Source: Alphaproteobacteria bacterium (GTDB lineage Bacteria > Pseudomonadota > Alphaproteobacteria > RF32 > CAG-239). Taken from it: 64,000 bases of DNA. Position 1 is the first letter of the stretch. The number at the start of each line of letters is the position of its first letter. Location: positions 16,097-80,096 of the forward strand of contig JAGCXO010000037.1 in the NCBI GenBank assembly GCA_017961285.1, read 5' to 3'. Shown one piece after another: positions 7,363 to 23,407 of the stretch. The translations under genes and the position numbers were made by a program. Below the pieces are notes generated by a model, which searched no databases, was not told where the DNA came from, and saw nothing but the letters and a program-made list of their open reading frames with translations.

Positions 7363-7461
7363 ATTAAATACTCCTGTTAAAGTTATGAAAGTATATTAAA
7401 ACTATTTTATTAAGAAAAAGATAATAACAAAACACAAAAACACATATAAAATCACACACCA

Positions 7462-7487
7462 AAAGGGAAAATAAGTATTCCCTTTCA
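7462..7487 (-). terminator. Possible terminator of the rfb operon
   Basis: AAAGGGAA/TTCCCTTT 8-bp stem with an 8-nt loop. The T-tract is short. Confidence 0.4.
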
Positions 7488-7544
7488 TACTTATTATATT
7501 TGTCGCATAATCGATATTATGTATAGTTATGGATTTAAAAACCT

Positions 7545-8333
7545 TTAATTTTCAATTTTTAGCAAAAATTCAAAATCATCCGCCCACGGCTTTATTTCAA
7601 CAGGCAATCCTCGTCCGGTTTCCATTGTAATATAAGCATTATTCGACGTATAATCATTCAAAAAATGTTCCAACGGATAATTTCCTTTACCATAGTGCAA
7701 ATGCTTATCATCAATTTCATCAACCAGACCATCACATAAATGATAAACATCAGGTTTTAAGTCAAAAAATCCTTGTAATTGTTTTTCAACATCAAGTCCA
7801 AGCGAATTTGCCGCACATAAAGCATGTGAAAAATCAAAACAAAAACCGCAACCGCAATTTTCTTTTATAAAAGCAATCTCTTCCGGCGTATTTCCAGAAA
7901 GTTTGAGGCCCTCTTCCGCCACAACCGGCAAATTTTCGACCACTATACGTTCATCATCAAACAGCCTAAATTGCCTTACTGTCTCTTTCAGCGGGGCATT
8001 TTCCTTCCTGCAACCGGCATGCACAACAACAGTTTTTGCATTTAACAAATCGGCCACAAATTGAACATTTTCAAAAATCTTACGATTGCTGGCTTCAAGT
8101 TCCCTATTTCCAACATCAAAATTCATCATATGATGCGGCGCATGGAGCCTGACTTCAACACCTTTCAGCCTCAATTTCAATTTTTCAAAATCCTCAGCCG
8201 CCGTATTTGGAACAACCATCAATTCTATAAACATTCTATCTCTATGCTCAAAAACAAATTTTATACTCTCATCCAAAACCCTTGGATTATCATGCAGATT
8301 TGAGCTAAACAATTTAAATCCATATTTACGCAT
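7545..8333 (-). CDS. Xylose-isomerase-like TIM-barrel protein (sugar phosphate isomerase/epimerase or AP-endonuclease-2 fold)
   Basis: The pattern ...VRLHAPHH...TVVVHAG...VVENL...FCFDFSHA... resembles the metal-binding strands of this fold. The start overlaps the rfbB stop by 8 nt (ATGCGTAA). Confidence 0.6.
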   Translation of the reverse strand: MRKYGFKLFSSNLHDNPRVLDESIKFVFEHRDRMFIELMVVPNTAAEDFEKLKLRLKGVEVRLHAPHHMMNFDVGNRELEASNRKIFENVQFVADLLNAKTVVVHAGCRKENAPLKETVRQFRLFDDERIVVENLPVVAEEGLKLSGNTPEEIAFIKENCGCGFCFDFSHALCAANSLGLDVEKQLQGFFDLKPDVYHLCDGLVDEIDDKHLHYGKGNYPLEHFLNDYTSNNAYITMETGRGLPVEIKPWADDFEFLLKIEN

Positions 8334-9336
8334 TTTGCAAATACCACTCCACGGTTTTTACAATTCCGCTAGCAAAATTTTCGTCGGCTTTCCATTGCAA
8401 TTGCTCTGTCAACTTGGTTGCATCAATCGCATATCTCTTATCATGCCCCGGTCTGTCCTTTACAAAAACTACCAAATCTTTGTAATGTTTTCCGCTAGCC
8501 CGTGGTCTTTTTTGATCCAATATCGAGCAAATTGCATCAACAATCTCAAGATTATTTTTCTCATTATGCCCGCCGATATTATAAGTTTCACCGCTTTTAC
8601 CATTGTGATAAATTAAATCAATAGCCTTACAATGATCAAGAACATACAGCCAATCACGAACATTTTTCCCATCACCATAAATCGGTATATCCTTTCCGTT
8701 CAATGCATTGGAAATAATCTTTGGAATCAGCTTTTCCGAATGCTGCTTAGGTCCGTAATTATTGGAACAATTTGAAACCGTAACATTCATTCCGTATGTG
8801 CGGTGATATGCCCGAACAATCATATCCGAAGAAGCTTTTGATGAAGAATAAGGTGAACTGGGATCATATGGAGTTTTTTCCGTAAAATAGCCGGTATCTC
8901 CCAAAGCGCCATAAACTTCATCTGTAGAAATATGATGAAAACGGCAATCTTCATACCCTGCCCTAAACTGATACGGAGCAGTCATCCAGTAGTTGCGCGC
9001 AACATCCAAAAGAGTAAAAGTTCCCAAAACATTTGTTTCAATAAATGCCTGCGGACCGGTAATTGAATTATCTACATGGCTCTCAGCCGCAAAATGAACA
9101 ACTCCTCTTATATCATAATCCTTAAACAATTTTTCTACCAATGCGCGATTGCAAATATCACCTTTTACAAAGGCATAATTTTCAGCATTTTCACATTCTT
9201 TAAGGTTATCCAGATTGCCGGCATATGTCAACTTATCAAGATTGATAATTTCATATTCCGGATATTTTGCCACCATGTAAGGTATAAAATTAGAGCCGAT
9301 AAACCCAGCTCCACCGGTAACCAAAATCGATTTCAT
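8326..9336 (-). CDS. rfbB: dTDP-glucose 4,6-dehydratase
   Basis: MKSILVTGGAGFIGSNF Rossmann start, YSSSKASSD catalytic YxxxK, and the DRPGHDKRYAID motif. I chose the internal ATG at 9336 rather than the 21-codon extension in the ORF track. Confidence 0.93.
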   Translation of the reverse strand: MKSILVTGGAGFIGSNFIPYMVAKYPEYEIINLDKLTYAGNLDNLKECENAENYAFVKGDICNRALVEKLFKDYDIRGVVHFAAESHVDNSITGPQAFIETNVLGTFTLLDVARNYWMTAPYQFRAGYEDCRFHHISTDEVYGALGDTGYFTEKTPYDPSSPYSSSKASSDMIVRAYHRTYGMNVTVSNCSNNYGPKQHSEKLIPKIISNALNGKDIPIYGDGKNVRDWLYVLDHCKAIDLIYHNGKSGETYNIGGHNEKNNLEIVDAICSILDQKRPRASGKHYKDLVVFVKDRPGHDKRYAIDATKLTEQLQWKADENFASGIVKTVEWYLQNA

Positions 9337-9337
9337 T

Positions 9338-10171
9338 TTACATTCTCTCCATATTTTTAATACATTCCTGCAAAGCCTGTTGCCAATGGCGATTTTCAAC
9401 TCCGCATTTTGCTCTAATCTTTGCCTTATTCAAAACTGAATAAAAAGGACGTGTTGCTTTTGTCGGATATTGTGAACTCTCAATTGGCAATATATTACAC
9501 TTCAAATTAGATTTTTTCATAATATCCACGGCAAAATCATACCAAGAACAAACCCCCTCATTTGAAAAATGATAAACTTCCTTTGTTCCGGTCTTTATTT
9601 GTGGCAAAATATTGACAATTGCCTGCGCCAAATCTTTTGCATAAGTAGGTGTTCCGACTTGGTCAAATACCACATTCAAACTATCTTTTTCTGCACCAAG
9701 TCTACGCATAGTTTTAACAAAATTATTACCGAATTCCGAATATAACCAAGCCGTTCGAATAATCACCGCCGTATCAGCAACCTCAAGAACAGCCTGCTCT
9801 CCGGCAAGCTTTGTCCGCCCATAAGCAGATTTTGGATTTGGAACATCATCTTCTTTGTATGGAACACAACTTCTTCCGTCAAAAACATAGTCGGTAGAAA
9901 TATGCACCAATGGAACTCCTGTTAAAGCTAAATTTTTCGGTCCTTCTACATTAATTTTATAAGCCAAATCCTCTTCATCCTCAGCATTATCCACTGCCGT
10001 ATAAGCCGCACAGTTAATAACCGCTTGATATTTTTCAGGCTTTACAAAACTTAAAACCACCTGTTTATCGGTAATATCAAGCTCTTCTTTATCAACGTAT
10101 TCGGCCTTATCTTGCAACAACAACCGCAATTCATTACCAAGCTGCCCGTTAGCACCAACAACTAAAAACAT
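9338..10171 (-). CDS. rfbD: dTDP-4-dehydrorhamnose reductase
   Basis: GANGQLG Rossmann motif, STDYVFDG, and YGRTKLAGE (YxxxK). Confidence 0.9.
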   Translation of the reverse strand: MFLVVGANGQLGNELRLLLQDKAEYVDKEELDITDKQVVLSFVKPEKYQAVINCAAYTAVDNAEDEEDLAYKINVEGPKNLALTGVPLVHISTDYVFDGRSCVPYKEDDVPNPKSAYGRTKLAGEQAVLEVADTAVIIRTAWLYSEFGNNFVKTMRRLGAEKDSLNVVFDQVGTPTYAKDLAQAIVNILPQIKTGTKEVYHFSNEGVCSWYDFAVDIMKKSNLKCNILPIESSQYPTKATRPFYSVLNKAKIRAKCGVENRHWQQALQECIKNMERM

Positions 10172-10707
10172 TCCACTTCCTCCAACAACATATTATTTTT
10201 ATCTTTCTCAGATAAAATTGCCTTATTTTCATCTATTTTCCAATCAATATTCAAGGTTGGATCATTATAGCGAATACCACATTCGGAAGCTTTGTTATAA
10301 ACATTGTCGCATTTATAAGCAAAAACAGCCATCTCGCTCAAAACGGAAAAACCATGCCCGAAACCTCTCGGTATCATGAGTTGACGTTTATTTTCCGCCG
10401 AGAGTTCAACTGCCACATGCTTACCGAAAGTCGGAGAATTTTTGCGCAAATCAACTGCAACATCAAGCACTGTTCCTTCCAAAACTCGCACCAACTTTGC
10501 CTGCGAAAATTCACCTTTTTGAAAATGAATTCCCCTGATTGTTCCGAATTTGGATTTTGACTGATTATCTTGAATAAAATTATAATCAATACCCTGTTTT
10601 TTTAAGTCGGCCTGATTATAGCTTTCAAAAAAATAACCGCGTTCATCTTCAAACACTATCGGCTCAATAATAAACACGCCTTCAATATCTGTTTTAATAA
10701 CCTTCAT
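10162..10707 (-). CDS. rfbC: dTDP-4-dehydrorhamnose 3,5-epimerase
   Basis: [16 protein letters not shown] and PRGFGHGF motifs. The start is taken at MKVIKT. Confidence 0.93.
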
Positions 10708-11578
10708 GACAATCCTCATAAACTTTTTTCAAATAGGCCTTATAATCAACTCCGTCTTTCAGTTCATTAATAATCTTCAATAACTGTTTATCGTCAATAA
10801 AGCCTTTCCGATAAGCAATCTCTTCAATACAAGCAATTTTCAAATCTTGACGTTTTTCAATAATTCCAATAAAATTAGATGCCTCCAACAAAGATTGCGG
10901 AGTTCCGGCATCAAGCCAAGCATTGCCACGTTTCATTGGCACAACATTCAACCTGCCCTCTTTAAGATACATGCGATTGAGATCTGTTATCTCAAGCTCT
11001 CCCCTTGCCGAAGGTTTTAATTGGCGCGCTTTTTCAACTACATCGGACTTATAGAAATAAAGCCCGACAACCGCATAATTTGACTTTGGTTGCTTGGGTT
11101 TTTCTTCAATAGAAATAGCACGAAAATCTTTATCAAACTCAACCACACCGAAACGTTCGGGATCAGATACGTGATAGCCAAAAACCGTTCCTCCGGCATT
11201 CTTAGAAATCTCTTCACGGAAAAGTTTAAATTGTTCTCCCATATAAAAGATGTTATCTCCCAAAATCAAGCATACATCATCATCACCTATAAAATCGGCA
11301 CCAATTGTAAAGGCTTGCGCAATACCCTTTGGTTCAGGTTGAATACGGTATTCTAAATGCATACCCAAGCGAGAACCATCACCAAACAATTTTTCAATAT
11401 TTGGAGTATCCTGTGGAGTTGAAATAATCAAAATATCCTTAATCCCGAACAACATCAAAGTTGACAATGGATAATAAATCATAGGTTTATCATAAACCGG
11501 CAAAAGTTGCTTACTGATAACATTAGTCAAAGGATAAAGACGAGAACCGCTGCCGCCTGCTAGAATGATACCTTTCAT
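10694..11578 (-). CDS. rfbA: Glucose-1-phosphate thymidylyltransferase
   Basis: [18 protein letters not shown] start, LGDNIF, and ELEITD motifs. Confidence 0.95.
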
Positions 11579-11725
11579 AAAAAACCTCCGTCACAATACT
11601 TAACTAGCCATAAGTTTACCCTGATATTTAAAAAAATAACGACTTTTATCCCTTTTATCCCCACAAAAAAACGCCAATAGCACTCCAAAAAAATGAGCAC
11701 CATACAAATTTTTATCTATAAGATA

Positions 11726-12643
11726 TTAACGCAAGAACAATTTGATTTCTTTTTTCAAAAATTTATATAATTTCTTACTGCAATGTCCTATATCCGGCAC
11801 AATTACCAACTTGGAATTAGGCATATTTTGATGCAAATCATAAGCTCCCTTCAACGGACAGACCATATCAAGGCGATTATGCACAATCAAAGTCGGAATA
11901 TTCTTAATATTTTCAATATGTTGCAAAATATAATCATCTTCCAGCATAAACTTTTGCGCAGCATAATTGATATAAATTTTACTCTTTGCAATATCATCCG
12001 CATCCAAATCCGTGAGTTCAAGTTTCGGCTTAAATTCGCCTAAAACCCTTTCATAACCGCTATATAATACTGCCGCACTGACCTGCTCTGTCATATCACC
12101 AAAATTTATCATTGAGGCAAAGCTGTCAGACAAAGATTTTGAGCCATTTTTCTTTTCATATAGCCTTTCCAATATATCAGGATAGAACAAACCGCTCTGC
12201 TCTTCTTCCCATTTTCTACTCATTTCATTGGCAAGAAAAATCTGGCTCAACAGCATACTTTTAACCTTTTGCGGATTTTTAATTGCAAACAACAAAGCCA
12301 AAGTTGAGCCCCAGGAACTTCCGCGCAAAATCACCTTATCTCTCACACCAAGATGGTCCAACAACCTTTCTGCATCATTAACCAATTTCCATGAAGTATT
12401 ACCTTCAATTTTCCCTACCGGCAAAGAATTATTACACCCTCTTTGGTCAAACAAAATCATACGATATTTACGTTTGTTAAAACCATCAGCATGCTTCAGT
12501 TTAGCACTTCCTCCGGGACCGCCGTGAAAAAACAAAACCGGCTCTCCGTCAGGATTTCCTGCTTCAAAAAAATATATTTTATGCCCGTCTTCTTCAGGAA
12601 GATAGCCACTGTTAAAAATTTTAGGACCAAAAAAATTAAACAT
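11726..12643 (-). CDS. pip: Proline iminopeptidase (alpha/beta hydrolase)
   Basis: FFHGGPGGS, DQRGCNNS and GSSWGSTLAL (nucleophile elbow) motifs. Confidence 0.85.
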   Translation of the reverse strand: MFNFFGPKIFNSGYLPEEDGHKIYFFEAGNPDGEPVLFFHGGPGGSAKLKHADGFNKRKYRMILFDQRGCNNSLPVGKIEGNTSWKLVNDAERLLDHLGVRDKVILRGSSWGSTLALLFAIKNPQKVKSMLLSQIFLANEMSRKWEEEQSGLFYPDILERLYEKKNGSKSLSDSFASMINFGDMTEQVSAAVLYSGYERVLGEFKPKLELTDLDADDIAKSKIYINYAAQKFMLEDDYILQHIENIKNIPTLIVHNRLDMVCPLKGAYDLHQNMPNSKLVIVPDIGHCSKKLYKFLKKEIKLFLR

Positions 12644-12710
12644 TTTTACTTTTCTTTCATAAATTACCCTAATAATAACATTAGATGTTTTTTATTAAAG
12701 GAGTATTAAG

Positions 12711-13514
12711 ATGCGAGTAATTATTAACTCCAACTACCAGCAATGCGCACAATGGGCAGCCGAATATGTTGCATATAAAATCAAAGCCGCACATCCGACA
12801 AAAGAAAAACCTTTTGTAATGGCATTGCCTGCAGGAAGCACCCCTCTCGGTATGTTCGAAGCATTGATTTCAATGTTCAAAAAAGGGAAAATTTCATTTC
12901 AAAATGTTGTGTTTTTCAACATGAACGAATATGTCGGCTTAGCTCCCGAAGATAAAAACAGTTTCAATTACTATTTATGGGACAATTTCTTTCAACATAT
13001 TGATATCAGAAAGAAAAATATTCACCTCTTGAATGGGCAAACCAAAGATTTTATGCAAGAATGTGCATCTTATGAAAAACTGATCCGCAGCTACGGAGGA
13101 ATAGATCTGCTTATTGCCGGAATTGGCGAAGACGGGCATATTGCCTTCAACGAACCAGGTTCATCTCTCGGCTCTCGCACCAGAGTAAAGGCCCTAAACC
13201 GCAACACTATCAGAGCCAATGCCCGCTTTTTTAATAATAACGAAAATCTTGTCCCAAAATTGGTCGTAACCATGGGTGTTGCTACTATTATGGATGCCGA
13301 TGAAGTTATGCTTATTGCCACTGGCGATAAAAAAGCCGATGCAATTCGTTGCGCCATTGAAGGCAGTGTCAACCATATGTGCCCTGTAAGCATATTGCAA
13401 ATGCACCCTCATGCCTTGATTGTCTGCGACGAAGAAGCAACCTCAAAATTACAATCTGATATTGTCCGTTATTTTAATGATAACGAAAATACCAAATTCG
13501 GCAGAAAAATATAA
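12711..13514 (+). CDS. nagB: Glucosamine-6-phosphate deaminase
   Basis: LPAGSTPLGMF, FNMNEYVGL and GIGEDGHIAFNEPGSSL motifs. GGAG RBS. Confidence 0.9.
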   Translation: MRVIINSNYQQCAQWAAEYVAYKIKAAHPTKEKPFVMALPAGSTPLGMFEALISMFKKGKISFQNVVFFNMNEYVGLAPEDKNSFNYYLWDNFFQHIDIRKKNIHLLNGQTKDFMQECASYEKLIRSYGGIDLLIAGIGEDGHIAFNEPGSSLGSRTRVKALNRNTIRANARFFNNNENLVPKLVVTMGVATIMDADEVMLIATGDKKADAIRCAIEGSVNHMCPVSILQMHPHALIVCDEEATSKLQSDIVRYFNDNENTKFGRKI

Positions 13515-13531
13515 CTTTTTTGTGAAAAAAC

Positions 13532-13560
13532 TTGACAAAATTTTGATATACGGTTAAACT
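13532..13560 (+). promoter_or_regulatory. Sigma-70-like promoter
   Basis: TTGACA(13532-13537)-N17-TAAACT(13555-13560), about 50 nt upstream of the 13613 ORF. Confidence 0.5.
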
Positions 13561-13612
13561 AATCGTAATTATGATTATTATCGCAATTTTTTATCACTAA
13601 AACTTTAAAAAT

Positions 13613-13987
13613 ATGGAAAAAGCAAAAAAACTGGCAACGATTGCCACCTGTTGTGTAAGTGCTACCGCCATTATTTGTTTATTGTTTGTCTTATTGGGAC
13701 TTTTTTATACCCAAGAAGGCGGCATTAATACAAGTTTTTTATCGTGGACAATTCTGGGTTGCACTGCGCTGTTTGTCGTTGTATTATACATTGACATCTA
13801 CTTGTATAGCCGCGGAGATGTTTCCTTTTATTTGGTTTTCTTCTCCTTTCTCTTAGTCATTTCAGGCTTTGTGGCATTTGGCTTCTTGGACCTTATCGGA
13901 ACACATCCGATGTTCTGGCTCTCTTGCGGCGCTACATCACTGATGGCAATGGTTTGTTTGCTATACAATGCACATGCAGCACTATAA
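13613..13987 (+). CDS. Hypothetical small membrane protein (about 4 TM helices)
   Basis: 124-aa hydrophobic ORF bounded by a promoter-like box and a terminator. Confidence 0.55.
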   Translation: MEKAKKLATIATCCVSATAIICLLFVLLGLFYTQEGGINTSFLSWTILGCTALFVVVLYIDIYLYSRGDVSFYLVFFSFLLVISGFVAFGFLDLIGTHPMFWLSCGATSLMAMVCLLYNAHAAL

Positions 13988-13994
13988 AACAATT

Positions 13995-14029
13995 ATCCCT
14001 TATGGTTTTTATCATAAGGGATTTTTTTA
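13995..14029 (+). terminator. Rho-independent terminator
   Basis: ATCCCTTATG (13995-14004) pairs with CATAAGGGAT (14013-14022), followed by TTTTTT. Confidence 0.85.
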
Positions 14030-14076
14030 TATTACTGTAAATTGAATAATTTTTTTCACAAAAAACAAATAAATAA

Positions 14077-14105
14077 TTGCCAAAATTGTTTTTAAGGATT
14101 ATACA
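14077..14105 (+). promoter_or_regulatory. Sigma-70-like promoter upstream of infA
   Basis: TTGCCA-N17-TATACA. Confidence 0.45.
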
Positions 14106-14138
14106 TCAATAAAAATGAACAACATTTAAGGATTTTTT

Positions 14139-14357
14139 ATGAAAGAAGAATTGTTAGAATTAACCGGCGAAGTTGTAGAAAAGCTCCCTAATGCCATGTT
14201 CAGGGTAAAACTTGAAAACGGAGTTGAAATCTTGGCAATGACTGCCGGAAAGATGCGCAAATTTCGCATCAGAGTAATGGTTGGCGACAAAGTAGATATT
14301 GAAATGACCCCATACGACCTTACCAAAGGACGTATAACTTTCCGCCACAAAGACTAG
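14139..14357 (+). CDS. infA: Translation initiation factor IF-1
   Basis: 72 aa. The sequence ...[60 protein letters not shown] is near-canonical IF-1. Confidence 0.97.
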
Positions 14358-14358
14358 A

Positions 14359-14937
14359 TTATAAATACTTAATCAGTAAAAAACCACCTATTAAAAGAAT
14401 AAAAAATATTATCGAGAGCAATCCAAAGTGTTTCTCGATAATTTTTTTAATCGGCTCTCCGAAAAACCTCAGCAATGCGGCAATTATAAAGAAGCGCAAT
14501 CCCCTAGCCACAACGGATGCTATACCGAAAACCCATATATTCATACCGACGACACCGCTGGCGATGGTAATAACTTTATACGGAAAAGGTGTAATTCCCG
14601 CGCCCAAAACAATCCAAGCACCATATTCATTATAATATCTGCTGAATTGCTCAAATTTTTCCAAATAGCCATAAAAATTGAGCAACGGCTTTGCAATCAA
14701 ATCATAACCGAGAAAACCTATCAAATAACCGAAATATCCGCCGATAACGCTTGCAATTGTTGCCACCAAAGCAATTTTCCATGCCCTCTTTGGTGTTGCA
14801 ACAATCATCGGAATAAGCATTATATCAGGAGGAATTGGGAAAAAAGAACTTTCAATAAAAGCAACTACAGCCAATGCCCACATAGCATTTCTTCCCGAAG
14901 CGGCATCAACCATCCATTGATATATTTTCTTAGTCAT
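14359..14937 (-). CDS. DedA/YqaA-family membrane protein
   Basis: FIESSFFPIPPDIMLIPM motif and multi-pass hydrophobic profile. Confidence 0.8.
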   Translation of the reverse strand: MTKKIYQWMVDAASGRNAMWALAVVAFIESSFFPIPPDIMLIPMIVATPKRAWKIALVATIASVIGGYFGYLIGFLGYDLIAKPLLNFYGYLEKFEQFSRYYNEYGAWIVLGAGITPFPYKVITIASGVVGMNIWVFGIASVVARGLRFFIIAALLRFFGEPIKKIIEKHFGLLSIIFFILLIGGFLLIKYL

Positions 14938-14976
14938 CTCAAATAACTCTTAAAAAAAATCTCCCTGCCACGGATA

Positions 14977-15570
14977 TTATTTAAGAATTGCTTTTAAATC
15001 TCCATCTTTTGTAATTTTTTCCACATAAAAAGTCTTTGCCATCGCAAATTTTTTGCTCAACTCAAGATATTTATCTCGATTACAACAAAGTCCTATTGCC
15101 CTTACCGCATTCTTTTCCAAAAACACTTTTGCGGCTCTCATATCATGAATTCGCAAAAACGATTGCTTTTCTTTTAGCAAATAATCCTCCTGTTTCTTTG
15201 GCTCAAAGAGCAAAAAATCATATTTTTTTCCGCCTTGACAATAAGCGCCGGCAACCTCCCCGAGTTTCTCATTAACCATAGACCTCAAAACATAATGAGA
15301 AACACCGGCATGCCAAGCTTCTTCAATATTTTTACAAATCACAGCCAGCGGAGTTTTAAAATTTTTAACCAAATATCCGATCAACATTTTATAATCCGGA
15401 TCCTTCACTTCGGCATCAACCACATACAAATCCGGCGAAAGCTCCTTAGAATACTTTGTCATTTTATAAACATTATTCGTAGCAAAAACCTCAATTCCTT
15501 TCTTCTCCAGCAATTTTGCGTAAAAATCCGCCCGTTCTTTCTTATCATCCACAATAAAAACCTTCCCCAT
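14977..15570 (-). CDS. Receiver-domain-like protein (probably degenerate pseudo-receiver)
   Basis: VFIVDDKK ... DLYVVDAEV ... PLAVICKN ... HYVLRS follows the CheY beta1/3/4/5 pattern, but the conserved Thr/Ser and Lys positions are replaced. No output domain recognised. GGAGGAG RBS. Confidence 0.45.
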   Translation of the reverse strand: MGKVFIVDDKKERADFYAKLLEKKGIEVFATNNVYKMTKYSKELSPDLYVVDAEVKDPDYKMLIGYLVKNFKTPLAVICKNIEEAWHAGVSHYVLRSMVNEKLGEVAGAYCQGGKKYDFLLFEPKKQEDYLLKEKQSFLRIHDMRAAKVFLEKNAVRAIGLCCNRDKYLELSKKFAMAKTFYVEKITKDGDLKAILK

Positions 15571-15668
15571 AATCTCCTCCCTTCCTGGGGTATAATATGG
15601 GATTTATTAAAGAATTTTCACCTGTCTTTTAGTTCTAAACAATATATCAAAAAGCAACAGTATTTTTA

Positions 15669-15697
15669 TTGACAAAAAAGCAAACTCTTGTTAGAAA
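15669..15697 (+). promoter_or_regulatory. Sigma-70-like promoter
   Basis: TTGACA-N17-TAGAAA, 50 nt upstream of the 15747 ORF. Confidence 0.45.
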
Positions 15698-15746
15698 AAG
15701 AACTCAAAATTGATATTATTATGTCTTATGTTTAATTTTTTGTATT

Positions 15747-16901
15747 ATGGAAAAACACCTATTATTCTCTCTGTTGGATAAAATTAATCCAACCACCGAC
15801 CAACTTCGCGAATATACGGAGTTGCGCACAAATGGAAAATTTCCCCTTCCGCTATTTTGGCGTGACCATTTAGGAGAATGTTTTTTCTCCAACAAATGGT
15901 ATGAAAACGCAACTGTCCTCGGCATTGCTTTGCCTGACAAAATCATCTTAAGAAGAACGATTGAGCCGGCCAAATGGCAAAAGGAACAAATCAGCACCCA
16001 AGACTTAGTCGAGCATGCAAAGCAAATTCATCCCGATGCCCTGCCCCTCCATTTCGGCGGCGACTCATCAGACGGCATCATTAATATGCTGTTGTTGCAT
16101 GGTCCTAAATACTTGGAAACAAGTATTTTGCTCGAAAAACACGGCATCAAAATGCCTAGTTTATTTGAGCCGATGGCCTATGTCGCCGGCGGAGATGCAA
16201 TTCTTGCGCAAGAAAACTTCAATATCCGTGTCTTTCAAATTGGTCAAAGGGAACAAAAATCGGTTCCCATCAAGCTCATCGACAAGATGATAGTCCTCAT
16301 CCCCGTCTCAGGATACAACTTTAAAGTCGTTTCTCAAGAGTCACAGCCGGAAAAACACGACCTGGATGTCGGAACTGGCATTAACAGTTGCGACTTTCCG
16401 CCAGATCGAACCACGCAAGAAAAATTCGAGTTTTCACTCCCTTTATTTCTGCGCGACACTAATGGCAAATATTTTGTCAGCAACAAAATTGTCGACGGTT
16501 GCACGGTTGAGGGTATTGCCCTGCGCGACACTATCATCCTGCGCCAGACAATTGCTCCCTGCAAAATAGACAAAGATGAACCGACGCAAGCCGATTTGTT
16601 TGAACTTGCCAAACAAGTTCACCCTTGCGCTCAACCACTTTATTTTGCCGGTTTTCCTTTCGGTGGCGGCATTATTACCCTGCTCTTGATCGACAAGAAA
16701 AAGTACATCCAAACATCCGAATTGCTCAGGAGATATGACGTAACCATGCCGGACATCAACAAAGAACTCTACTTTGTTGGTGGAAACTACCATCAAGGAG
16801 GTTATGTCAACGAAATCAAAGTAGGATGTTGGTCCGGAGGATCGAGGATTAAAGGCATCGAAGAAATGCTTCTTGCCATTCCTCGCAATCAAGTTGAGTA
16901 A
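15747..16901 (+). CDS. Hypothetical protein made of two tandem copies of an unrecognised ~190-aa domain
   Basis: aa 1-197 and 198-384 align colinearly (KFPLPLFWRD/FSLPLFLRD, VLGIALPDKIILRRTIEP/VEGIALRDTIILRQTIAP, QIHPDALPLHFGG/QVHPCAQPLYFAG). No signal peptide. Confidence 0.7.
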   Translation: MEKHLLFSLLDKINPTTDQLREYTELRTNGKFPLPLFWRDHLGECFFSNKWYENATVLGIALPDKIILRRTIEPAKWQKEQISTQDLVEHAKQIHPDALPLHFGGDSSDGIINMLLLHGPKYLETSILLEKHGIKMPSLFEPMAYVAGGDAILAQENFNIRVFQIGQREQKSVPIKLIDKMIVLIPVSGYNFKVVSQESQPEKHDLDVGTGINSCDFPPDRTTQEKFEFSLPLFLRDTNGKYFVSNKIVDGCTVEGIALRDTIILRQTIAPCKIDKDEPTQADLFELAKQVHPCAQPLYFAGFPFGGGIITLLLIDKKKYIQTSELLRRYDVTMPDINKELYFVGGNYHQGGYVNEIKVGCWSGGSRIKGIEEMLLAIPRNQVE

Positions 16902-16912
16902 ATGTAAAACCA

Positions 16913-16946
16913 AAGGCGGATATGAATATCCGCCTTTTCTGTTTTA
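16913..16946 (+). terminator. Rho-independent terminator
   Basis: AAAGGCGGATAT (16913-16924) pairs with ATATCCGCCTTT (16927-16938), followed by TCTGTTTT. Confidence 0.85.
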
Positions 16947-16977
16947 AAGATTTGGCAAAAATTTTATCGCACCTGTG

Positions 16978-17006
16978 TAACAAAAATGTCATTTTACAAT
17001 ATAATC
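16978..17006 (+). promoter_or_regulatory. Possible promoter of the giant gene
   Basis: GTAACA-N17-TATAAT (TATAAT at 17001-17006). Confidence 0.35.
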
Positions 17007-17063
17007 AAAATATTATATACTGATTGTAGTTATGATTGTATCTTCGGATAAAGGGGAAAAGCC

Positions 17064-20000
17064 ATGCCAAACAGTATTGAAACACCGATTGCCGTAAACA
17101 CTGAAGAAGTAACAATTGACGACAATATTTATATCAAAGAAACCTATGAAGACGGAACATATGCCTATAAAGACCAAGAAGGCAACGTCACCAGCGTTTA
17201 TTATCCCAGCGGTTATACTAAAGTTACCGCACTAGAAGACGGCGACGTCCTAAGTTTTTACGATGGCGGCAAAATCAAATCGGTAGAATCCTGCAACACC
17301 CATTCCTCATATACTGTTCTGCACGACAATGGTGAAATATATGAAAGCAACCCCCAATACGATTACAAACTGATAAATTCGCAAAATTATGATGAAAACG
17401 GCAATCTCGAAGAAGCAACACTCTCCGACGGCACCGAAATCAGTTACTATGAGAACGGCTATTGCGAAGAAATAATTACAGACGACGAAGATATCATCAA
17501 ATTCAACGATAACGGACAAGTAACCTCAATCCAATCCAGCGGAAAACATTCATCTTTCAGTTTTGACCACGCCAACGGCGAACACTGGCAAACTGCGCCC
17601 GAAGATGACTATACCGAAATAGAAGAGCAAACTTGGTATGACAACGGACAAACAAAAAGCAAAGATAACTTTGATGACAGCTACACCGCATATTATGAAA
17701 ACGGATATATAGAAACCTACTACAGCCCCGATCACGACCAAATAGAATTTGACGAAAATGGCAATCTAACCTCCATACATGCCTCCGGGAAACACTCCTC
17801 ATACGAACTTCAGCATGCCAACGGCGAAACATGGAAAAGCGATCCTCAATATGACTATACAAATACCAAACAACAAAAATGGCAGGACGGCAATCTTGTC
17901 AGCACCAGCGTAGATGTCAGTAACGAAGAAGTGGAAAAAATGGTAAAAGAGCGCGCCCATTGGCTTTGTGAACAATATATAGAAGCCACAGACCGACGTT
18001 TGGCAGAAATTCAAAGCTGTAACTCAACTGAAAAAACTCAATATGTAAAAGATATGTTTGACAGACTTGGTCATGGTCGAATATATGACAAATATTGCAT
18101 CGTTGGACAGTTAAATTGTCTGCAGGACGTATGCGACAGCAGCGGCAATCTTAACGATTCATATCACAACACCACCAATTGCGCAAACTTCATAGCCAAT
18201 ATGAAAAAGAATGGTTATGCCGACTGCTTCAGCAAAAATCCGAAAAAAGAAGATATTCACCCCGGAGATATGATTTTTACACCACGTGATAAAGATGGCA
18301 ACTACCATGTTGTTTCGGTAAAAGAAGTTTATCAGGATGAAAAAGGTGAAACTCACGTAATTGTCAACAGCTTCAACAGTGACGGAACAAAAGAGTTCAA
18401 AGGAAACGGCAACTACACCGTATTTAACACCGAAAAATATATGGAAAAAGCCCTCTATAAGGAACTGGAAGAACAAAATTTGTGGCAACAGGAACAAGAT
18501 AACGGACAATACATAGCCTCAAACGGCGATACTCGTCAAATGGATGCGGTAAAATATGCCGAAATGAATACTTATTTGACCCGCGGAATGGAACCTGAAT
18601 CAGATATTCAGCTTGCCGATGCCGTCGTTGAACATGATAATACATCACAAACTGTTCCGGAAGCTCCTCAACAAGAATCCCAAGAAGACCAAATAGTCAC
18701 AGGCCCAATTGACACCAAATATTACGAGGATGGCACACTGGCCTATGAAGAATATCCTGACGGCAGCGAAAAAAGCTATCGTAAAAACGGAAAGTTACAA
18801 TATGAAAAACTGCCTGATGGAACCGAAAAAACTTATTACATAAGTGGTAATTTGAAATATGAAAAACATCCCGATGGCACCGAAAAAAGCTATGATAATA
18901 CGGATGATTACTCCTTACAATATGAAAAACTTCCCGACGGCACTGAAAACACCTACAGTGATGGCAAGTTAATAGCAACAAAATCTAAAGACGGAGATTG
19001 GAATTACCAATCAACCCCTAAATATGCATCTCCATCACATACAAAAATTGAATATTATCCCGACGGCACCACACCAAAACATGTTGAACGGCCTGATGGA
19101 GTTATAATAGATTATTATGAAAATGGTCAATATAAACATTATGAGTGGCCTAGTGGAGATAAAGCAGATTATTATGAACATAACGGTATTCTTAAACATT
19201 ATGAGTGGGCTGAAGAAGAAAAAATAGTGGAAAAAGCCGACTTTGATGAGAAAGGTGTTGTAAAATATCAAGAAGATTCTGATGGCACCAAAATCTACTA
19301 TTATGAAAATGGTATACCCAAACACAAAGAACTTCCGGACGGCACAATAATCGACTATGATGAAAAAGGACAGATAAAAGAAGAGAATCAGTCAAATCCA
19401 CCAAGCATTGAAAAAACAGAAGACCAAATACTCGCTTCCAATCAACAAACACAAGATAACACTCAAACAACAACTACTATTACAAAAGAAGAGGAAAACA
19501 ATATGACAGAACAACAAACAAATGGAAATGATAATTGCCATGTAGAATATTATGACAACGGCAATATAAAATATGAAGAATGGCCCGATGGCTCAAAGAA
19601 CTTTTATTACGAAAGCGGAGCATTACAGCGCGCTGAACGTGATGATATGATAGTCGACTATTATGAGAACGGAAATTATAAGCGCTTAGATTATAAAGAC
19701 GACAATGTTATAGAATATTATGAAAACGGCAATATAAAAACCGCAGAATATCCTGAAGGCGATTATCTTGAATTCAACGAAAAAGGTGAACCCACACGTA
19801 TTCTTTCCTCTTTAACATATCCATCATACACCATCACACGGGGAGATAATCAAACTGAATGGACAAGCGACCCGCAATATGACTATACCCAAATAGCTGA
19901 ACAAACTTTTGAAAACGGTAAAGTTGTAAAAGAAATAAAATCCGAAGAACGCCAATTAGCACAAGAGAATGCTGCAGATTTTCATGAATATATTGCCCCT

Positions 20001-22508
20001 GAACATGCACAGAAAGATACCTCACCAAAATCAAAAACATACTACGAAAACGGCAATGTAAAATATGAAGAATTGGAAGACGGCTCAAAGAACTTCTATT
20101 ATGAAAACGGAAAATTGCAACGCACCGAAAGCGACGAAAGAAATGTTGACTACTACGAAAACGGTAGTTACAAGCGCGTTGACTACAAAAACGGCAATGC
20201 AACAGACTATTACGAAAACGGTTATGTTCAAAAGACCACTTGCGTCGAAGGTGATGTAATAGAGTTTGATGAGCAAGGACGTGCAACACATATAAAATCA
20301 TCAGGCAGATTTATCTCTTATGAAGTAAATCATGCCAACGGCGAAAAATGGCACAGCCCTGCACTGCGCAATTATACCAAAATAAAAGAACAAACATGGG
20401 AAAACGGCAAACTTAAAGATATTACAAGATTTACCAAAGAAGAAAGAGCCGCCAACTATAACAAATACCACAACCCGGACGGTCAAGCAATCATCAATGA
20501 CAACACCGAAGCCATCAATGATGTTGCAGATATTGCCCCCCAACCTCAAAATTCTGACATCATCACCAGAGAAAATCAGGTTGATGATGCCAATCTGAAA
20601 TGGTATGGAAACGATCAACTTGCTGAGGAAACTTTAGACAGCGGACTTTCTCGTAAACATTCCGCAGACGGCAAACTGCTCACCAGAACCTACCCCGGCA
20701 CAGGAAAGCCTTCTTTCTCAGAGCATTTACTAGGTAAAAAAGCTGAAGCAGAAGTTACCTACACATTTTATCCCAACGGACACCTAAAATCACAAACAAA
20801 TGCCGACGGCACCACCACCACTTTTGAAGAAAACGAAAAATTACCACAAGCCACAAGCATAAAATTACCAAACGGTGCTACTATCCATTATGATGCTGAA
20901 GGCAAAATGACCGCCGAAGAACTTTCTGACGGACGCAAAATTACCTATTCTGACAAAGGAAATGTGGAAACATATGAGTGGCCGGACGGCTCAAAAGCCA
21001 CCTATTATGAGACCGGTGAAGCCAAAAGCTGGCAGGAAAACAATACCGAAACATTTTATTATCCAAATGGAGGAGTTAAACAAGTCAATTACAACGACGG
21101 CAATCAAATAAAATTTGATGAAAATGGATCTCCTACATATATCAAATCATCAGGAAAAGCTAATAAAATCATTGTCAAAGATGCTAATGGAAATACTTTT
21201 TGGGAAAGCGACCAAAAATATGATTATACTAAAATACAAGAACAAGTTTTCTACGATAACGGAAATATAAAATACGAAAAGTTTACCGACGGCACTGAAA
21301 AAGCTTATACACGCGATGGCACTTACCATACTGAAAAACTTCCCGATAATACCCTAAGAACTTATGATGAAGGTAAAATAGAATACGAAAAACTTCCCGA
21401 TGGAACTGAAAAAACAAGTTTCCATGAAGGTTACAAAACGTATGAAAAACTTCCCGATGGAACTGAAAACACCTACCGCAATGGAGAGCTAATGTCCACC
21501 AAAATCCCCGGTGGAGAATGGCAGTATGTAGGAGCTAAAGTTGAGCCTTCAGAAGATGAAAAAATTGAATATTACCCGAGCGGCGCAGAAAAACACATTG
21601 AATTCTCTGATGGTCGAAAATACGATTTTTATGAAAATGGTATGCCAAAACATAAGGAATGGCCAGATGGGCAAAAAGAAGATTTCTATGAAAATGGATC
21701 TGTTAAACATGTCGAGTGGAATGATGGTGCCAAAGGCGATTTTTCTGAAAACGGTATACAAGAATGTCAAATTTATCCTGACGGCACAAAAAAATACACT
21801 CACCCCAACGGATTGTTAAAACATCAAGAAAATCCAGACGGATCAAAAGTTGATTATTATGAAAACGGAATGCTCAGCAAAAAAACAGATAAAGACGGCA
21901 ATGAAACCAACTATGATAAAGAAGGCAATCAGATAACAGAAAAATCTACTCATCAAAAAGAAGAAAACTCTGACGAACTTGCCGATAAAACCGAAACAAA
22001 AAACAATAAAAAATCACATAAATCAAAATCATCAAATGCCGAATATCACGAAAACGGCTACATAAAAACCTATAATTCACCCGACGGCGATGTCTTAGAG
22101 TTTGATGACAGAGGAAATATAACTCATATCCAATCTTCCGGCAAAGTCTCAAGCTATGATATTGAACACCCCAATGGTGAACATTGGCAAAGTCCTGCTC
22201 AATACGACTATACAAAAATTGAAGAGCAAACCTACGAAAACGGCGAGTTAAAATCACACGTCGACAAACAAAAAGAAGATGATCAGAAAAAAGCTCGCGA
22301 AGAAGAACGTAAGAAAAGAAGAGAAGAACGCAAAGCCAGAAGACTTGAGCGACTCGCCAAACTAAAAGCCCTGATTGCAGAGCGCTATGCCGCAGAAAAC
22401 GGCGATTCTCCGACGGGAATATTCCAACGTCATCGCCAAAATGACAATCAAGAGCGCCAAAGCCCAGTTATGCAATGGTTCAAAAACAGACAATCACAAA
22501 ATAACTAA
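17064..22508 (+). CDS. Giant (1814 aa) MORN-like repeat protein with embedded Cys/His papain-fold-like domain and basic C-terminal tail
   Basis: Single uninterrupted ORF with an AAGGGGA RBS. Dozens of YYENG.../E(K/W)(L/P)PDG(T/S)EK.. units resemble MORN/YwqK-type repeats. No N-terminal signal peptide. Confidence 0.85.
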   Translation: MPNSIETPIAVNTEEVTIDDNIYIKETYEDGTYAYKDQEGNVTSVYYPSGYTKVTALEDGDVLSFYDGGKIKSVESCNTHSSYTVLHDNGEIYESNPQYDYKLINSQNYDENGNLEEATLSDGTEISYYENGYCEEIITDDEDIIKFNDNGQVTSIQSSGKHSSFSFDHANGEHWQTAPEDDYTEIEEQTWYDNGQTKSKDNFDDSYTAYYENGYIETYYSPDHDQIEFDENGNLTSIHASGKHSSYELQHANGETWKSDPQYDYTNTKQQKWQDGNLVSTSVDVSNEEVEKMVKERAHWLCEQYIEATDRRLAEIQSCNSTEKTQYVKDMFDRLGHGRIYDKYCIVGQLNCLQDVCDSSGNLNDSYHNTTNCANFIANMKKNGYADCFSKNPKKEDIHPGDMIFTPRDKDGNYHVVSVKEVYQDEKGETHVIVNSFNSDGTKEFKGNGNYTVFNTEKYMEKALYKELEEQNLWQQEQDNGQYIASNGDTRQMDAVKYAEMNTYLTRGMEPESDIQLADAVVEHDNTSQTVPEAPQQESQEDQIVTGPIDTKYYEDGTLAYEEYPDGSEKSYRKNGKLQYEKLPDGTEKTYYISGNLKYEKHPDGTEKSYDNTDDYSLQYEKLPDGTENTYSDGKLIATKSKDGDWNYQSTPKYASPSHTKIEYYPDGTTPKHVERPDGVIIDYYENGQYKHYEWPSGDKADYYEHNGILKHYEWAEEEKIVEKADFDEKGVVKYQEDSDGTKIYYYENGIPKHKELPDGTIIDYDEKGQIKEENQSNPPSIEKTEDQILASNQQTQDNTQTTTTITKEEENNMTEQQTNGNDNCHVEYYDNGNIKYEEWPDGSKNFYYESGALQRAERDDMIVDYYENGNYKRLDYKDDNVIEYYENGNIKTAEYPEGDYLEFNEKGEPTRILSSLTYPSYTITRGDNQTEWTSDPQYDYTQIAEQTFENGKVVKEIKSEERQLAQENAADFHEYIAPEHAQKDTSPKSKTYYENGNVKYEELEDGSKNFYYENGKLQRTESDERNVDYYENGSYKRVDYKNGNATDYYENGYVQKTTCVEGDVIEFDEQGRATHIKSSGRFISYEVNHANGEKWHSPALRNYTKIKEQTWENGKLKDITRFTKEERAANYNKYHNPDGQAIINDNTEAINDVADIAPQPQNSDIITRENQVDDANLKWYGNDQLAEETLDSGLSRKHSADGKLLTRTYPGTGKPSFSEHLLGKKAEAEVTYTFYPNGHLKSQTNADGTTTTFEENEKLPQATSIKLPNGATIHYDAEGKMTAEELSDGRKITYSDKGNVETYEWPDGSKATYYETGEAKSWQENNTETFYYPNGGVKQVNYNDGNQIKFDENGSPTYIKSSGKANKIIVKDANGNTFWESDQKYDYTKIQEQVFYDNGNIKYEKFTDGTEKAYTRDGTYHTEKLPDNTLRTYDEGKIEYEKLPDGTEKTSFHEGYKTYEKLPDGTENTYRNGELMSTKIPGGEWQYVGAKVEPSEDEKIEYYPSGAEKHIEFSDGRKYDFYENGMPKHKEWPDGQKEDFYENGSVKHVEWNDGAKGDFSENGIQECQIYPDGTKKYTHPNGLLKHQENPDGSKVDYYENGMLSKKTDKDGNETNYDKEGNQITEKSTHQKEENSDELADKTETKNNKKSHKSKSSNAEYHENGYIKTYNSPDGDVLEFDDRGNITHIQSSGKVSSYDIEHPNGEHWQSPAQYDYTKIEEQTYENGELKSHVDKQKEDDQKKAREEERKKRREERKARRLERLAKLKALIAERYAAENGDSPTGIFQRHRQNDNQERQSPVMQWFKNRQSQNN
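17196..17903 (+). repeat. Three tandem ~82-aa coding repeats (aa 45-280 of the giant protein)
   Basis: Each unit is YYENGY..E...D.D.I.F + a ~48-aa module (F[DN]-[ED]-[NK]G..T.I.SSGKHSS....HANGE.W...P.YDYT....Q.W.[DN]G). Confidence 0.8.
17949..18398 (+). other. Putative papain-fold (CHAP / NlpC-P60-like) Cys-His domain inside the giant protein
   Basis: Candidate nucleophiles are C345 (DKYCIVGQ, nt 18096-18098) or C373 (TNCANF, nt 18180-18182). They are followed by HPGDMIFTPRDKDGNYH415VVSV and THVIVNSFN. This matches the GD(L/M)(I/V)F...H(V/I) pattern of these amidases. Confidence 0.4.
18720..19379 (+). repeat. Segmental coding duplication, copy 1 (aa 553-772)
   Basis: Colinear with aa 1396-1622. 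Both contain YEKLPDGTEKT, YEKLPDGTENTY, KIEYYP.G...H and (D/F)YENG..KH.EWP.G. Confidence 0.75.
19539..20423 (+). repeat. Two tandem ~165-aa coding repeats (aa 826-955 and 992-1120)
   Basis: YYDNGNIKYEEWPDGSKNFYYESGALQRAE..VDYYENGNYKRLDYK aligns with YYENGNVKYEELEDGSKNFYYENGKLQRTE..VDYYENGSYKRVDYK. Each copy ends in the 48-aa module. Confidence 0.8.
21249..21929 (+). repeat. Segmental coding duplication, copy 2 (aa 1396-1622)
   Basis: See copy 1 at 18720-19379. Confidence 0.75.
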
Positions 22509-22531
22509 GTTATAAAAAACTTGACAAAAAT

Positions 22532-22571
22532 AATGTTCTGAAGTAAGACAACACTTCAGAACATTATTTTT
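22532..22571 (+). terminator. Rho-independent terminator of the giant gene
   Basis: Perfect 13-bp stem: AATGTTCTGAAGT (22532-22544) pairs with ACTTCAGAACATT (22553-22565), followed by ATTTTT. Confidence 0.9.
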
Positions 22572-22584
22572 AAATATAACTATT

Positions 22585-23202
22585 ATGAGAACCTTAGAAT
22601 TGTTAAAAAGGTTGGAAAAAATAGATCCGACCGATGAGCAACTTGCATTATGCATGGAAATACGGAAGAAAAATTTTCCTCTTCCGTTATATGTAAAACT
22701 CCCCAACGGAGAACATCTGTTGACACGCAAACTGGAAGACCGTATGATTGTCGAGGGAATTGCCACTGAACTCGGTATATATTTAACAGCCGAAATCCAC
22801 CCTATCCAATTTGGCAATAACGAAGTTACGGTTGCCGATTTGTATATTGCCGCAAGAGAAGTCCATCCCGATGCACGTCCTCTTACCAAAGACGACATTT
22901 TCGGAAAAAACAAACACAACCTCTCTTCGCTTATATCCCTAGACTCAACATTGGAAATTATGCAATATGAACTCAACCGTCTCAAATGCTGTGGTAGCAG
23001 AAGTATTGAATTTCTCAATCACAATTTTGAGTGTTATGCTCTCCCTAAACAAGCATTGCTTTCCGACACACATATAGCCCGATACAACGCCTATATTGAG
23101 GATTATGAATGTGAAGTTGCCATCAACGAGATTTATAAACTCGGATTATTTATTCCCGAAAAAAACATAAAAAATTATTATTATGGTAGAAAAGACAATT
23201 AA
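22585..23202 (+). CDS. Hypothetical protein; N-terminal third copy of the domain found in ORF 15747-16901
   Basis: NFPLPLYVK sits at the same offset as KFPLPLFW in the upstream ORF, and IVEGIA and TVADLYIAAREVHPDARPL are also shared. The C-terminal ~90 aa are unrelated and Cys-containing. Confidence 0.65.
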   Translation: MRTLELLKRLEKIDPTDEQLALCMEIRKKNFPLPLYVKLPNGEHLLTRKLEDRMIVEGIATELGIYLTAEIHPIQFGNNEVTVADLYIAAREVHPDARPLTKDDIFGKNKHNLSSLISLDSTLEIMQYELNRLKCCGSRSIEFLNHNFECYALPKQALLSDTHIARYNAYIEDYECEVAINEIYKLGLFIPEKNIKNYYYGRKDN

Positions 23203-23407
23203 GCAAATTGCCGCCGATGTTTACGATTTACCTGAGGGTTGTATCGAAGAAAATGACAAGTTTTCCTCTCTCGGCGACAGTCTCGACCACATCGAGATGG
23301 TAAGAAGAATGGAAGACGAATTCAATGTACAAATCTCCATCAAAAAAATGGAAGATCTCCCAACCATCGGAGATGCAATAAAATATGTTGAAGCTCGTCT
23401 TAAATAA
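23183..23407 (+). CDS. Acyl/peptidyl carrier protein-like (orphan ACP)
   Basis: 74 aa. SLGDSLDHIEMVRRMEDEFNVQI matches the ACP LG(A)DSLD..E(L)V...E.EF helix II region. The putative phosphopantetheine Ser is at nt 23279-23281. The ORF overlaps the upstream ORF by 20 nt. Confidence 0.75.
   Translation: MVEKTIKQIAADVYDLPEGCIEENDKFSSLGDSLDHIEMVRRMEDEFNVQISIKKMEDLPTIGDAIKYVEARLK

Follow-up and report, generated by a model that had tools for sequence, protein, structure and literature searches.

The window analysed here is a stretch of 64,000 nucleotides from contig JAGCXO010000037.1 of an alphaproteobacterial metagenome-assembled genome (MAG; assembly GCA_017961285.1), and the subject of this study is one gene within it, whose product we call P0001. 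The gene is a single uninterrupted open reading frame (ORF 17064-22508, forward strand) for a protein of 1814 residues, as a first-pass annotation of this DNA had stated. Most of P0001 is made up of short beta-hairpin repeats, among which a longer module of 48 residues recurs seven times; the repeat arrays are separated by linkers and by one non-repetitive domain, and the protein ends in a basic helical region and a tail (Table 1). We find it probable that P0001 is an elongated, multivalent hairpin-repeat scaffold with one hydrolase-like domain, in which the module would be a derived double repeat. Related loci belong to MAGs of uncultured gut Alphaproteobacteria from human, mouse and ruminant guts, and genome sizes in the genus are 1.0-2.0 Mb. 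The present genome is referred to as G000 and its sister genome, which holds an orthologue of P0001, as G020.

Repeats and nested duplications in P0001

About 1300 residues of P0001 are taken up by a 19-residue beta-hairpin repeat, [YF][YD]ENGxhKxxxxPDGxxxx, of the MORN_2 / YD type. The anchor pattern [YFW]xx[ND..]G occurs 43 times; the spacing between successive anchors is exactly 19 residues in 21 of 42 cases, and the remaining generic spacings are 18-20. A hidden Markov model (HMM) of the 19-residue unit finds about 40 generic repeats. P0001 scores above the curated cut-offs of Pfam RHS_repeat (PF05593, 60.5 bits against 22), Pfam MORN_2 (PF07661, 37.9 bits against 29.6, E = 1.1e-9) and NCBIfam YD_repeat_2x (TIGR01643, 20 bits against 15.8), and it also matches the CPAP G-box weakly by sequence. 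The MORN_2 period of 22-23 residues is not found in P0001, where the dominant period is 19.

The seven copies of the longer module are all read in frame 0 as F[DN][ED]xGxxTxIxSSGKxSS[YF]xxxHANGExWxSxPQYDYTxIxEQT[WFY]xNG, at the very intervals first reported for them. An HMM built from these copies scores 76-92 bits on each of them and has no significant match to any of the roughly 40 generic repeats or elsewhere in P0001.

Larger duplications were mapped using a BLOSUM62 diagonal scan together with block-against-block blastp; whole-protein self-blastp gave the identity match only. The scan reveals offsets of 82, 164 and about 833-843 residues superimposed on the basic period of 19. The 82-residue units, each of which consists of two generic 19-residue hairpin repeats and one module of 44-45 residues, are 36-57% identical to one another (E = 1e-14 to 3e-27), and a fourth such unit is present near the C-terminus. 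At the offset of 164, residues 826-960 and 990-1125 are 54.8% identical (E = 5e-45). The pair that we call block A, namely residues 546-772 and 1389-1622, aligns across 236 columns at 43.6% identity (E = 3e-52), with a Smith-Waterman score of 515 compared with 57 +/- 10 in 200 shuffles. The two copies have an irregular insert in common, and either of them gives E-values of at least 1e-12 against the other arrays. Since they are far closer to each other than to any other array, block A points to a specific block duplication and not to generic repeat similarity.

The diagonal scan thus recovers, at the same offsets and far above chance, the nested duplications that the first-pass annotation had described (three units of ~82 residues, two of ~165 and a ~220-residue block present twice), and the Q/T/N-rich and K-rich linkers that it placed between blocks are seen in the translation. 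Its proposal that the gene arose by repeated intragenic duplication is supported by the diagonals, the periodicity of the anchors and the block alignments. To judge from sequence, the gene grew by nested duplication from 19 to 82 to 164 residues, and a block of ~225 residues was in addition copied 840 residues away.

The duplicated copies are now diverged, at 36-57% identity in protein and 60-85% in DNA, the latter across at most ~60 nucleotides (nt). The longest DNA repeat measures 194 nt at 75% identity, the repeat units have no long exact DNA words in common, and Tandem Repeats Finder reports nothing on the gene. DNA copies that are this short and diverged give a k-mer assembler no reason to collapse or expand them. 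Furthermore, contigs from four gut-metagenome runs, one of which belongs to an independent bovine study, tile positions 16500-23000 collinearly at 99% identity or higher, with no joints or indels seen in them. Taken together, the divergence of the copies and the tiling without rearrangement make an assembly artefact unlikely.

Table 1. Features of P0001 and of its tail family. Positions refer to the window unless a contig of G000 is named.
Feature	Residues	Positions	Strand	Remarks
ORF of P0001	1-1814	17064-22508	+	single open frame, stop codon included, 1814 aa
N-terminal 3 x 82-aa units	31-278	17154-17897	+	offset-82 diagonals; pairwise identity 36-50%; AlphaFold pLDDT 92, all-beta
Module copy 1	65-112	17256-17399	+	module HMM 80 bits
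Module copy 2	147-195	17502-17648	+	module HMM 83.5 bits
Module copy 3	229-276	17748-17891	+	module HMM 87.7 bits; strands mapped in AlphaFold model
Non-repetitive globular domain	282-509	17907-18590	+	divergent NlpC/P60-superfamily candidate
Block A copy 1	546-772	18699-19379	+	~11 generic repeats, one irregular insert
Q/T/N-rich linker	773-825	19380-19538	+	seen in translation
164-aa unit copy 1	826-960	19539-19943	+	four generic repeats and module 4
Module copy 4	904-952	19773-19919	+	in-frame translation, module HMM
164-aa unit copy 2	990-1125	20031-20438	+	four generic repeats and module 5
Module copy 5	1068-1115	20265-20408	+	in-frame translation, module HMM
Module copy 6	1351-1400	21114-21263	+	in-frame translation, module HMM
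Block A copy 2	1389-1622	21228-21929	+	43.6% identity to copy 1
K-rich linker	1623-1658	21930-22037	+	seen in translation
Module copy 7	1680-1727	22101-22244	+	module HMM 92 bits
Basic helical region and C-terminal tail	1735-1814	22266-22505	+	ends ...VMQWFKNRQSQNN; homologous in three paralogues
Tail family member C5, 469 aa		G000 C5:10747-12177	+	tail HMM
Tail family member C20, 540 aa		G000 C20:30104-31768	+	tail HMM
Tail family member C18, ~350 aa		G000 C18:28668-29741	-	tail HMM

Structure and distribution of the 48-residue module

The module opens on a normal anchor (FDENG) and closes on the next [WFY]xNG, and in the three modules whose closing anchor was caught by the pattern it spans 44-45 residues. 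This slot equals two repeat lengths plus 6-7 residues and is in register with the 19-residue repeat. Among 15 module copies, Pfam MORN_2 matches one (E = 0.004, none reaching the cut-off) and RHS_repeat one. An hhalign comparison of the module with the generic repeat aligns residues 1-19 (P = 2e-4) and nothing beyond, and the generic-repeat HMM never matches the interior of the module (about residues 12-43). The partial hhalign alignment and the near-absence of Pfam matches indicate a strongly diverged double repeat, and in this respect they bear out the early remark that the module is unlike a plain MORN repeat.

Residues 20-292 were modelled by AlphaFold2 from an alignment of 13 rows, which consists of the orthologue and other units. 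The model has a pLDDT of 92.1 and a pTM of 0.81 (pLDDT 90-97 across modules 2 and 3) and contains 26 strands of 3-7 residues, with no helix beyond one turn. In module 3, the strands LTSIH, ELQ, TWK and TKQQKWQ (5, 3, 3 and 6-7 residues within modules) are joined by the loops ASGKHSSY (8 residues), HANGE (5 residues) and SDPQYDYTN (9 residues). A pair of generic repeats, by contrast, has four strands of ~5 residues and turns of 4-5 residues. As modelled, the module is two hairpins, i.e. four short strands, that continue the same meander and carry two enlarged, conserved loops (SSGKxSS and SxPQYDYT). Because turns alternate between the edges of a meander, these two loops should adjoin, and would lie side by side on the sheet edge that carries the generic PDG turns.

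A Foldseek search of the Protein Data Bank (PDB) with this model returned 56 matches at E<=0.001, and all but two among the 50 best listed are hairpin-array sheets. The best query-normalised TM-score (TMq 0.42) belongs to an engineered single-layer OspA; Rhs cores of the type VI secretion system (T6SS) and teneurin YD shells match at E ~1e-7 with a TMq of ~0.2, and the CPAP TCP10 domain and T. gondii MORN1 are also found. The alignments extend over the full 273 residues of the model (280-340 columns), which argues that the module is not a separate fold. The first-pass annotation had raised the possibility of a distinct fold, to be judged by, among other checks, predicting the structure of one 82-residue unit; the prediction is a hairpin array, in which the module shares the anchors of the generic repeats and its four strands belong to an uninterrupted array that Foldseek relates to other hairpin arrays, and the idea is not supported.

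Single-layer sheets such as the CPAP/SAS-4 G-box (TCP10_C), MORN1/MORN4 and engineered OspA resemble P0001 in being elongated hairpin arrays without a conventional hydrophobic core, and CPAP is matched both by sequence and by fold. They differ from it in that CPAP, MORN1 and MORN4 are eukaryotic and cytoplasmic, while OspA belongs to the surface lipoproteins of spirochaetes; the two enlarged loops of the module and a fused hydrolase-like domain are missing from all of them. A kinship of the xANGExW turn of the module with Asp-box/BNR repeats, prompted by partial matches to the BNR-repeat protein P0004, was rejected as a short-motif resemblance.

To see how widely the module is spread, we turned the 15 copies into a 48-position profile and ran it against 1.84 billion representative proteins. 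It matches over its full length only the orthologue P0002, P0006 (540 aa, from this genome) and P0007 (369 aa), whereas all other matches are partial and to unrelated repeats. With three clusters in 1.84 billion proteins, the module is, as a sequence signature, unique to this lineage. Within the present genome, P0001 has seven copies and the C20 paralogue one, and the C18 paralogue gives a weak match (Table 1). Four of the seven P0001 copies come last in their array before a linker, the globular domain or the tail, as does the module in the three small paralogues. This terminal position suggests a capping or terminal-knob role, so that the module may cap the arrays at their end and/or serve as a repeated knob for binding.

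The orthologue P0002 (1629 aa, 51% identity, eight modules) is the single relative found in a word-indexed homologue search with P0001, and comes from another, independently assembled metagenome. The locus is syntenic: genes for a glucosamine-6-P isomerase-like protein, a small membrane protein and a receiver-domain protein lie upstream in both. Identity is 68% over the N-terminal 3 x 82 array plus the enzyme domain, and 58% over the last unit plus the tail. The two orthologues differ by whole central blocks (residues 546-825 and 1436-1616 of P0001, and 545-865 of P0002); the second halves of block A have no good counterparts in P0002, which carries an additional module at residues 800-848.

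The Cys/His domain, the C-terminal tail and the secretion machinery

The first-pass annotation was silent on the non-repetitive domain (residues 282-509), on the C-terminal tail and on the divergent type IV secretion system that members of the genus share. Single-domain orthologues of the non-repetitive domain, 330-375 residues long and with N-terminal signal or anchor sequences, are present in 19 of 24 genus genomes sampled. Their genes adjoin a conserved gene for a product of ~400 residues with a signal peptide and an aromatic C-terminus; we take this outer-membrane-type neighbour to be a putative OprB-like porin. This genome also encodes a second, 469-residue paralogue of the domain.

Across ten aligned sequences, C345, C373, C388, H415 and N438 (P0001 numbering) are invariant, and the domain contains a PGDhhF...H motif. 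Six of the ten members match NLPC_P60 weakly (best E = 0.014), and one member each matches LRAT (E = 6e-4) and CHAP (E = 0.04), in all cases below the cut-offs. In an AlphaFold model of the domain (pLDDT 89), C345 and C373 lie at the N-termini of helices (model helix starts 60 and 92), H415 on a strand (133-143) and N438 in the loop after the strand 149-155. A Cys at a helix N-terminus, a His on a strand and an Asn/Asp after the next strand (here N438/D440) is the likeness to the NlpC/P60-CHAP-LRAT superfamily, from which the domain differs in its large helical N-terminal extension and in that all matches fall below family thresholds. Foldseek against the PDB gave no match at E<0.001, with only partial matches to Tudor/SH3-like barrels, and a profile search against PDB sequences gave chance matches only (SPT6, E = 0.3). 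In BFVD, a phage NLPC/P60 endopeptidase is matched with a probability of 1.00, a TMt of 0.52 and an rmsd of 3.9 Å over 137 columns, but at E = 0.023, and a Peptidase C51 with a probability of 0.99. We regard the domain as a candidate, and not a proven, divergent member of the NlpC/P60 superfamily. A relative of it is found on a 4.5-kb contig (L033, CAVIWQ010000086.1) that is binned as Bacteroidaceae and is probably a mis-binned alphaproteobacterial contig.

The genes flanking P0001 encode a ~190-residue domain that has no Pfam match. It is present twice in the upstream ORF (15747-16901, forward strand) and once in the downstream ORF (22585-23202, forward strand), which is followed by a 74-residue ACP-like gene (23183-23407, forward strand), also without a Pfam match. 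At the orthologous locus (L001 15058-17236), both copies of the ~190-residue domain and the ACP-like gene are downstream. A fourth copy, again with no Pfam match, lies elsewhere in the genome (G000 C28:346-948). As this is the only other copy, the idea that such flanking genes are immunity genes of every NlpC-like paralogue was rejected.

At its C-terminus, P0001 has a region with 23 K+R versus 14 D+E (residues 1735-1814), namely a basic helix followed by a tail that ends ...VMQWFKNRQSQNN. A C-terminal region of ~65 residues is common to four signal-less proteins of very different length, plus relatives, and a tail HMM run over the genome finds these four ORFs only. A basic helix opens the region, Y/FxExxQ... 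comes next, and hhxxW+x+xQN[GNA] closes the protein. All four proteins except C18 also have a PPxAV...DGSYGIED-type motif at the N-terminus. The Pfam scan of P0001 gave no family match to the tail, and the tail family is lineage-specific.

P0001 has no N-terminal signal peptide or transmembrane (TM) segment, as was first noted: the highest mean Kyte-Doolittle value over 19 residues is 0.44. In G000 and G020, the HlyD-type fusion protein of the type I secretion system (T1SS; TIGR01843) is matched at 48 bits at best, the cut-off being 209, and the Pfam scan found no RTX or Ig-like family in P0001. A giant repeat adhesin of the T1SS (RTX/LapA-like) was rejected on these two grounds. The T6SS protein TssC (PF05943) was not found in G000 or G020.

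G000 does encode a type IV coupling protein (T4CP) of 726 residues (T4SS-DNA_transf, 198 bits), which shows a core-gene-like conservation across the genus (82-86% identity). Its gene (G000 C48:91364-93544) is part of a five-gene cluster at a contig end (G000 C48:91364-97871, reverse strand), alongside genes for two small TM proteins and for two unknown ones. A specific co-occurrence of the T4CP with the tail family was rejected, the T4CP being a core gene of the genus. VirB4 of the type IV secretion system (T4SS) occurs in 23 of 26 genomes of the genus, including G020. There, a T4SS-like operon with divergent VirB2/VirB3/VirB4-like genes (L043, G020 C29:38000-57900; 6717-19436) encodes two pilins (one weakly VirB2-like, the other PilS/bundlin-like), a protein with a weak likeness to VirB3 and a VirB4 of 810 residues, after which come four proteins (583, 223, 362 and 1520 residues) with no family match. 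In G000, two isolated genes for ATPases of T2SSE/VirB11 size (~322 residues; C36:22690-23658, forward strand, and C2:524-1498, reverse strand) lie outside any secretion gene cluster, and their products have similar N-termini (...FSDLYITP...). Should P0001 be surface-displayed or exported, as was first supposed, the divergent T4SS of the genus, incomplete in this assembly, would be the sole candidate route.

Readings of P0001 and what they mean

In the reading that we favour, namely a hairpin-repeat scaffold with one hydrolase-like domain, the repeats would serve as spacers or binding surfaces that are long, semi-rigid and multivalent, and the arrays would carry one divergent NlpC/P60-like Cys/His hydrolase domain. 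The Sec signals of the single-domain orthologues indicate that those proteins work outside the cytoplasm. For the four signal-less paralogues, the basic tail would be the likeliest targeting or export signal, and it may be recognised by the T4CP.

Bacterial MORN_2 proteins, as described in Fusobacterium (PMC4222103), are like P0001 in their short YxxNG-type hairpin repeats, their long variable arrays and their local duplication, and both are presumed to be adhesive or to bind. In invasive Fusobacterium, the MORN2 family is expanded and surface-associated and is mostly predicted to be exported; 87% of its proteins have a signal peptide, which is absent from P0001 (PMC4222103). P0001 further differs in its period of 19 and not 22-23 residues, in its double-hairpin variant of 44-48 residues, and in its fused enzyme-like domain and family-specific C-terminal tail.

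Several points weigh against the favoured reading. Modules 1, 2 and 6 run straight into further repeats, so the cap idea is not universal. The continuity and curvature of the sheet and the position of both enlarged loops on the same edge are inferred from secondary structure and from the types of Foldseek matches, and the alignment behind the AlphaFold model is shallow, with 11 of its 13 rows covering unit 3 only. Membership of the NlpC/P60 superfamily is sub-threshold (Pfam E of 0.014 or higher, Foldseek E of 0.023, no fold match in the PDB). VirB4 and VirB10/TrbI were not found in this assembly, which is 92% complete, and the T4CP occurs also in genomes without the tail family, so that the two show no specific co-occurrence. 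Finally, eukaryotic MORN proteins are cytoplasmic.

These last points bear on whether P0001 leaves the cell at all. Like eukaryotic MORN proteins, it could be a scaffold that is not exported and that resides in the cytoplasm or at the inner leaflet, with the tail binding membrane or nucleic acid. The very hydrophilic sequence, the strongly basic tail and the lack of a signal peptide or TM segment would suit such a protein, as would a genome with no HlyD-type T1SS fusion protein, no T6SS and an assembly from which VirB4 and VirB10 are missing. On the other hand, an N-terminal signal or anchor is found in every single-domain orthologue of the enzyme domain, and the three cysteines of this domain, invariant in signal-bearing and signal-less forms alike, would suit an oxidising compartment. 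The Fusobacterium MORN_2 proteins are mostly predicted to be exported (PMC4222103), and a T4CP and a genus-wide T4SS do exist. Overall, we consider a purely intracellular P0001 unlikely.

A more specific version of the favoured scaffold reading would make the four tail-sharing paralogues substrates of the divergent, chromosomally conserved T4SS of the genus, with P0001 as a giant effector whose seven conserved double-loop knobs, borne on arms of hairpin sheet, would bind a target surface multivalently, so that the NlpC/P60-like hydrolase is delivered there. Xanthomonas-type T4SS effectors (X-Tfes) share a C-terminal VirD4-binding domain (XVIPCD), and some of them have cell-wall-hydrolase-like domains. 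The likeness consists of several paralogues of unrelated length without Sec signals, of one conserved Gln-rich basic C-terminal region, of cell-wall-hydrolase-like domains in some members and of a chromosomal T4SS with a coupling protein. The tail family is unlike X-Tfes in that no sequence similarity to XVIPCD was detected (the Pfam scan gave no match to the tail) and in that there are no adjacent lipoprotein immunity genes. We hold this effector scenario to be quite improbable.

In our judgement, a small domain that has a fold of its own and was inserted seven times among MORN-like repeats is a very unlikely account of the module. Such a domain would explain an interior that neither the generic HMM nor Pfam MORN_2 and RHS_repeat can see, and a strongly conserved, lineage-restricted signature of its own. 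The module is, however, exactly in register with the repeat anchors, AlphaFold shows only short strands and turns as in the adjoining repeats, and Foldseek aligns the entire model to continuous hairpin arrays and not to any small globular domain.

P0001 resembles Rhs toxins and teneurins in its tyrosine-rich beta-hairpin repeats of ~20 residues, and could be taken for an Rhs/YD-type polymorphic toxin with a closed repeat shell, T6SS or Tc-like delivery and the ~190-residue neighbours as immunity proteins or chaperones. P0001 exceeds the curated cut-offs of both RHS_repeat, its best Pfam match, and YD_repeat_2x, the best Foldseek E-values are those of T6SS Rhs cores, and the P0001 gene is flanked in both genomes by small conserved genes that belong to one family. 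However, a regex search of P0001 found no DPxG[LIVM], PxxxxDPxG or RVxxxxxxxG motif, so that an Rhs core and an autoproteolysis motif are absent, and there is no C-terminal toxin: the enzyme domain is internal and the protein ends in a basic helix plus tail. The linkers break the arrays into pieces of 80-330 residues, none of the size of a closed shell and too short for a cocoon of ~700 residues, and the TMq to Rhs shells is ~0.2. Neither this genome nor its sister has TssC, and the ~190-residue genes are not beside the other NlpC-like paralogue. The toxin reading fails on defining motifs, architecture and delivery machinery, and is highly improbable.

A collapse, expansion or chimera in a short-read metagenome assembly is hardly credible as the source of the nested repeats, since even in a 51-contig MAG with roughly 4-7x depth in the available runs the copies are without long exact DNA words or Tandem Repeats Finder reports, contigs from four samples agree without joints or indels, and the independently assembled, 51%-identical orthologue, at a syntenic locus, is laid out alike at the N-terminus, in the central domain and at the C-terminus.

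Returning to P0001 as a scaffold of hairpin repeats, the observation is real but fairly ordinary, and the module is a lineage-specific double-hairpin variant of a known repeat. P0001 is a documented case in which a long hairpin-repeat protein grew by hierarchical duplication and then diversified, which will not surprise specialists, and of sub-repeat specialisation, whereby two enlarged conserved loops were gained without leaving the parent fold. Since the module is not seen by the Pfam MORN_2 and RHS_repeat models, it is useful for the annotation of repeat proteins. The more interesting parts are the tail family, the hydrolase-like domain and the divergent T4SS in an uncultured gut genus with reduced genomes. 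If the tail family, the hydrolase-like fusion and the T4SS are linked, they would offer a first handle on how these gut bacteria, abundant but unstudied, interact with their neighbours or host.

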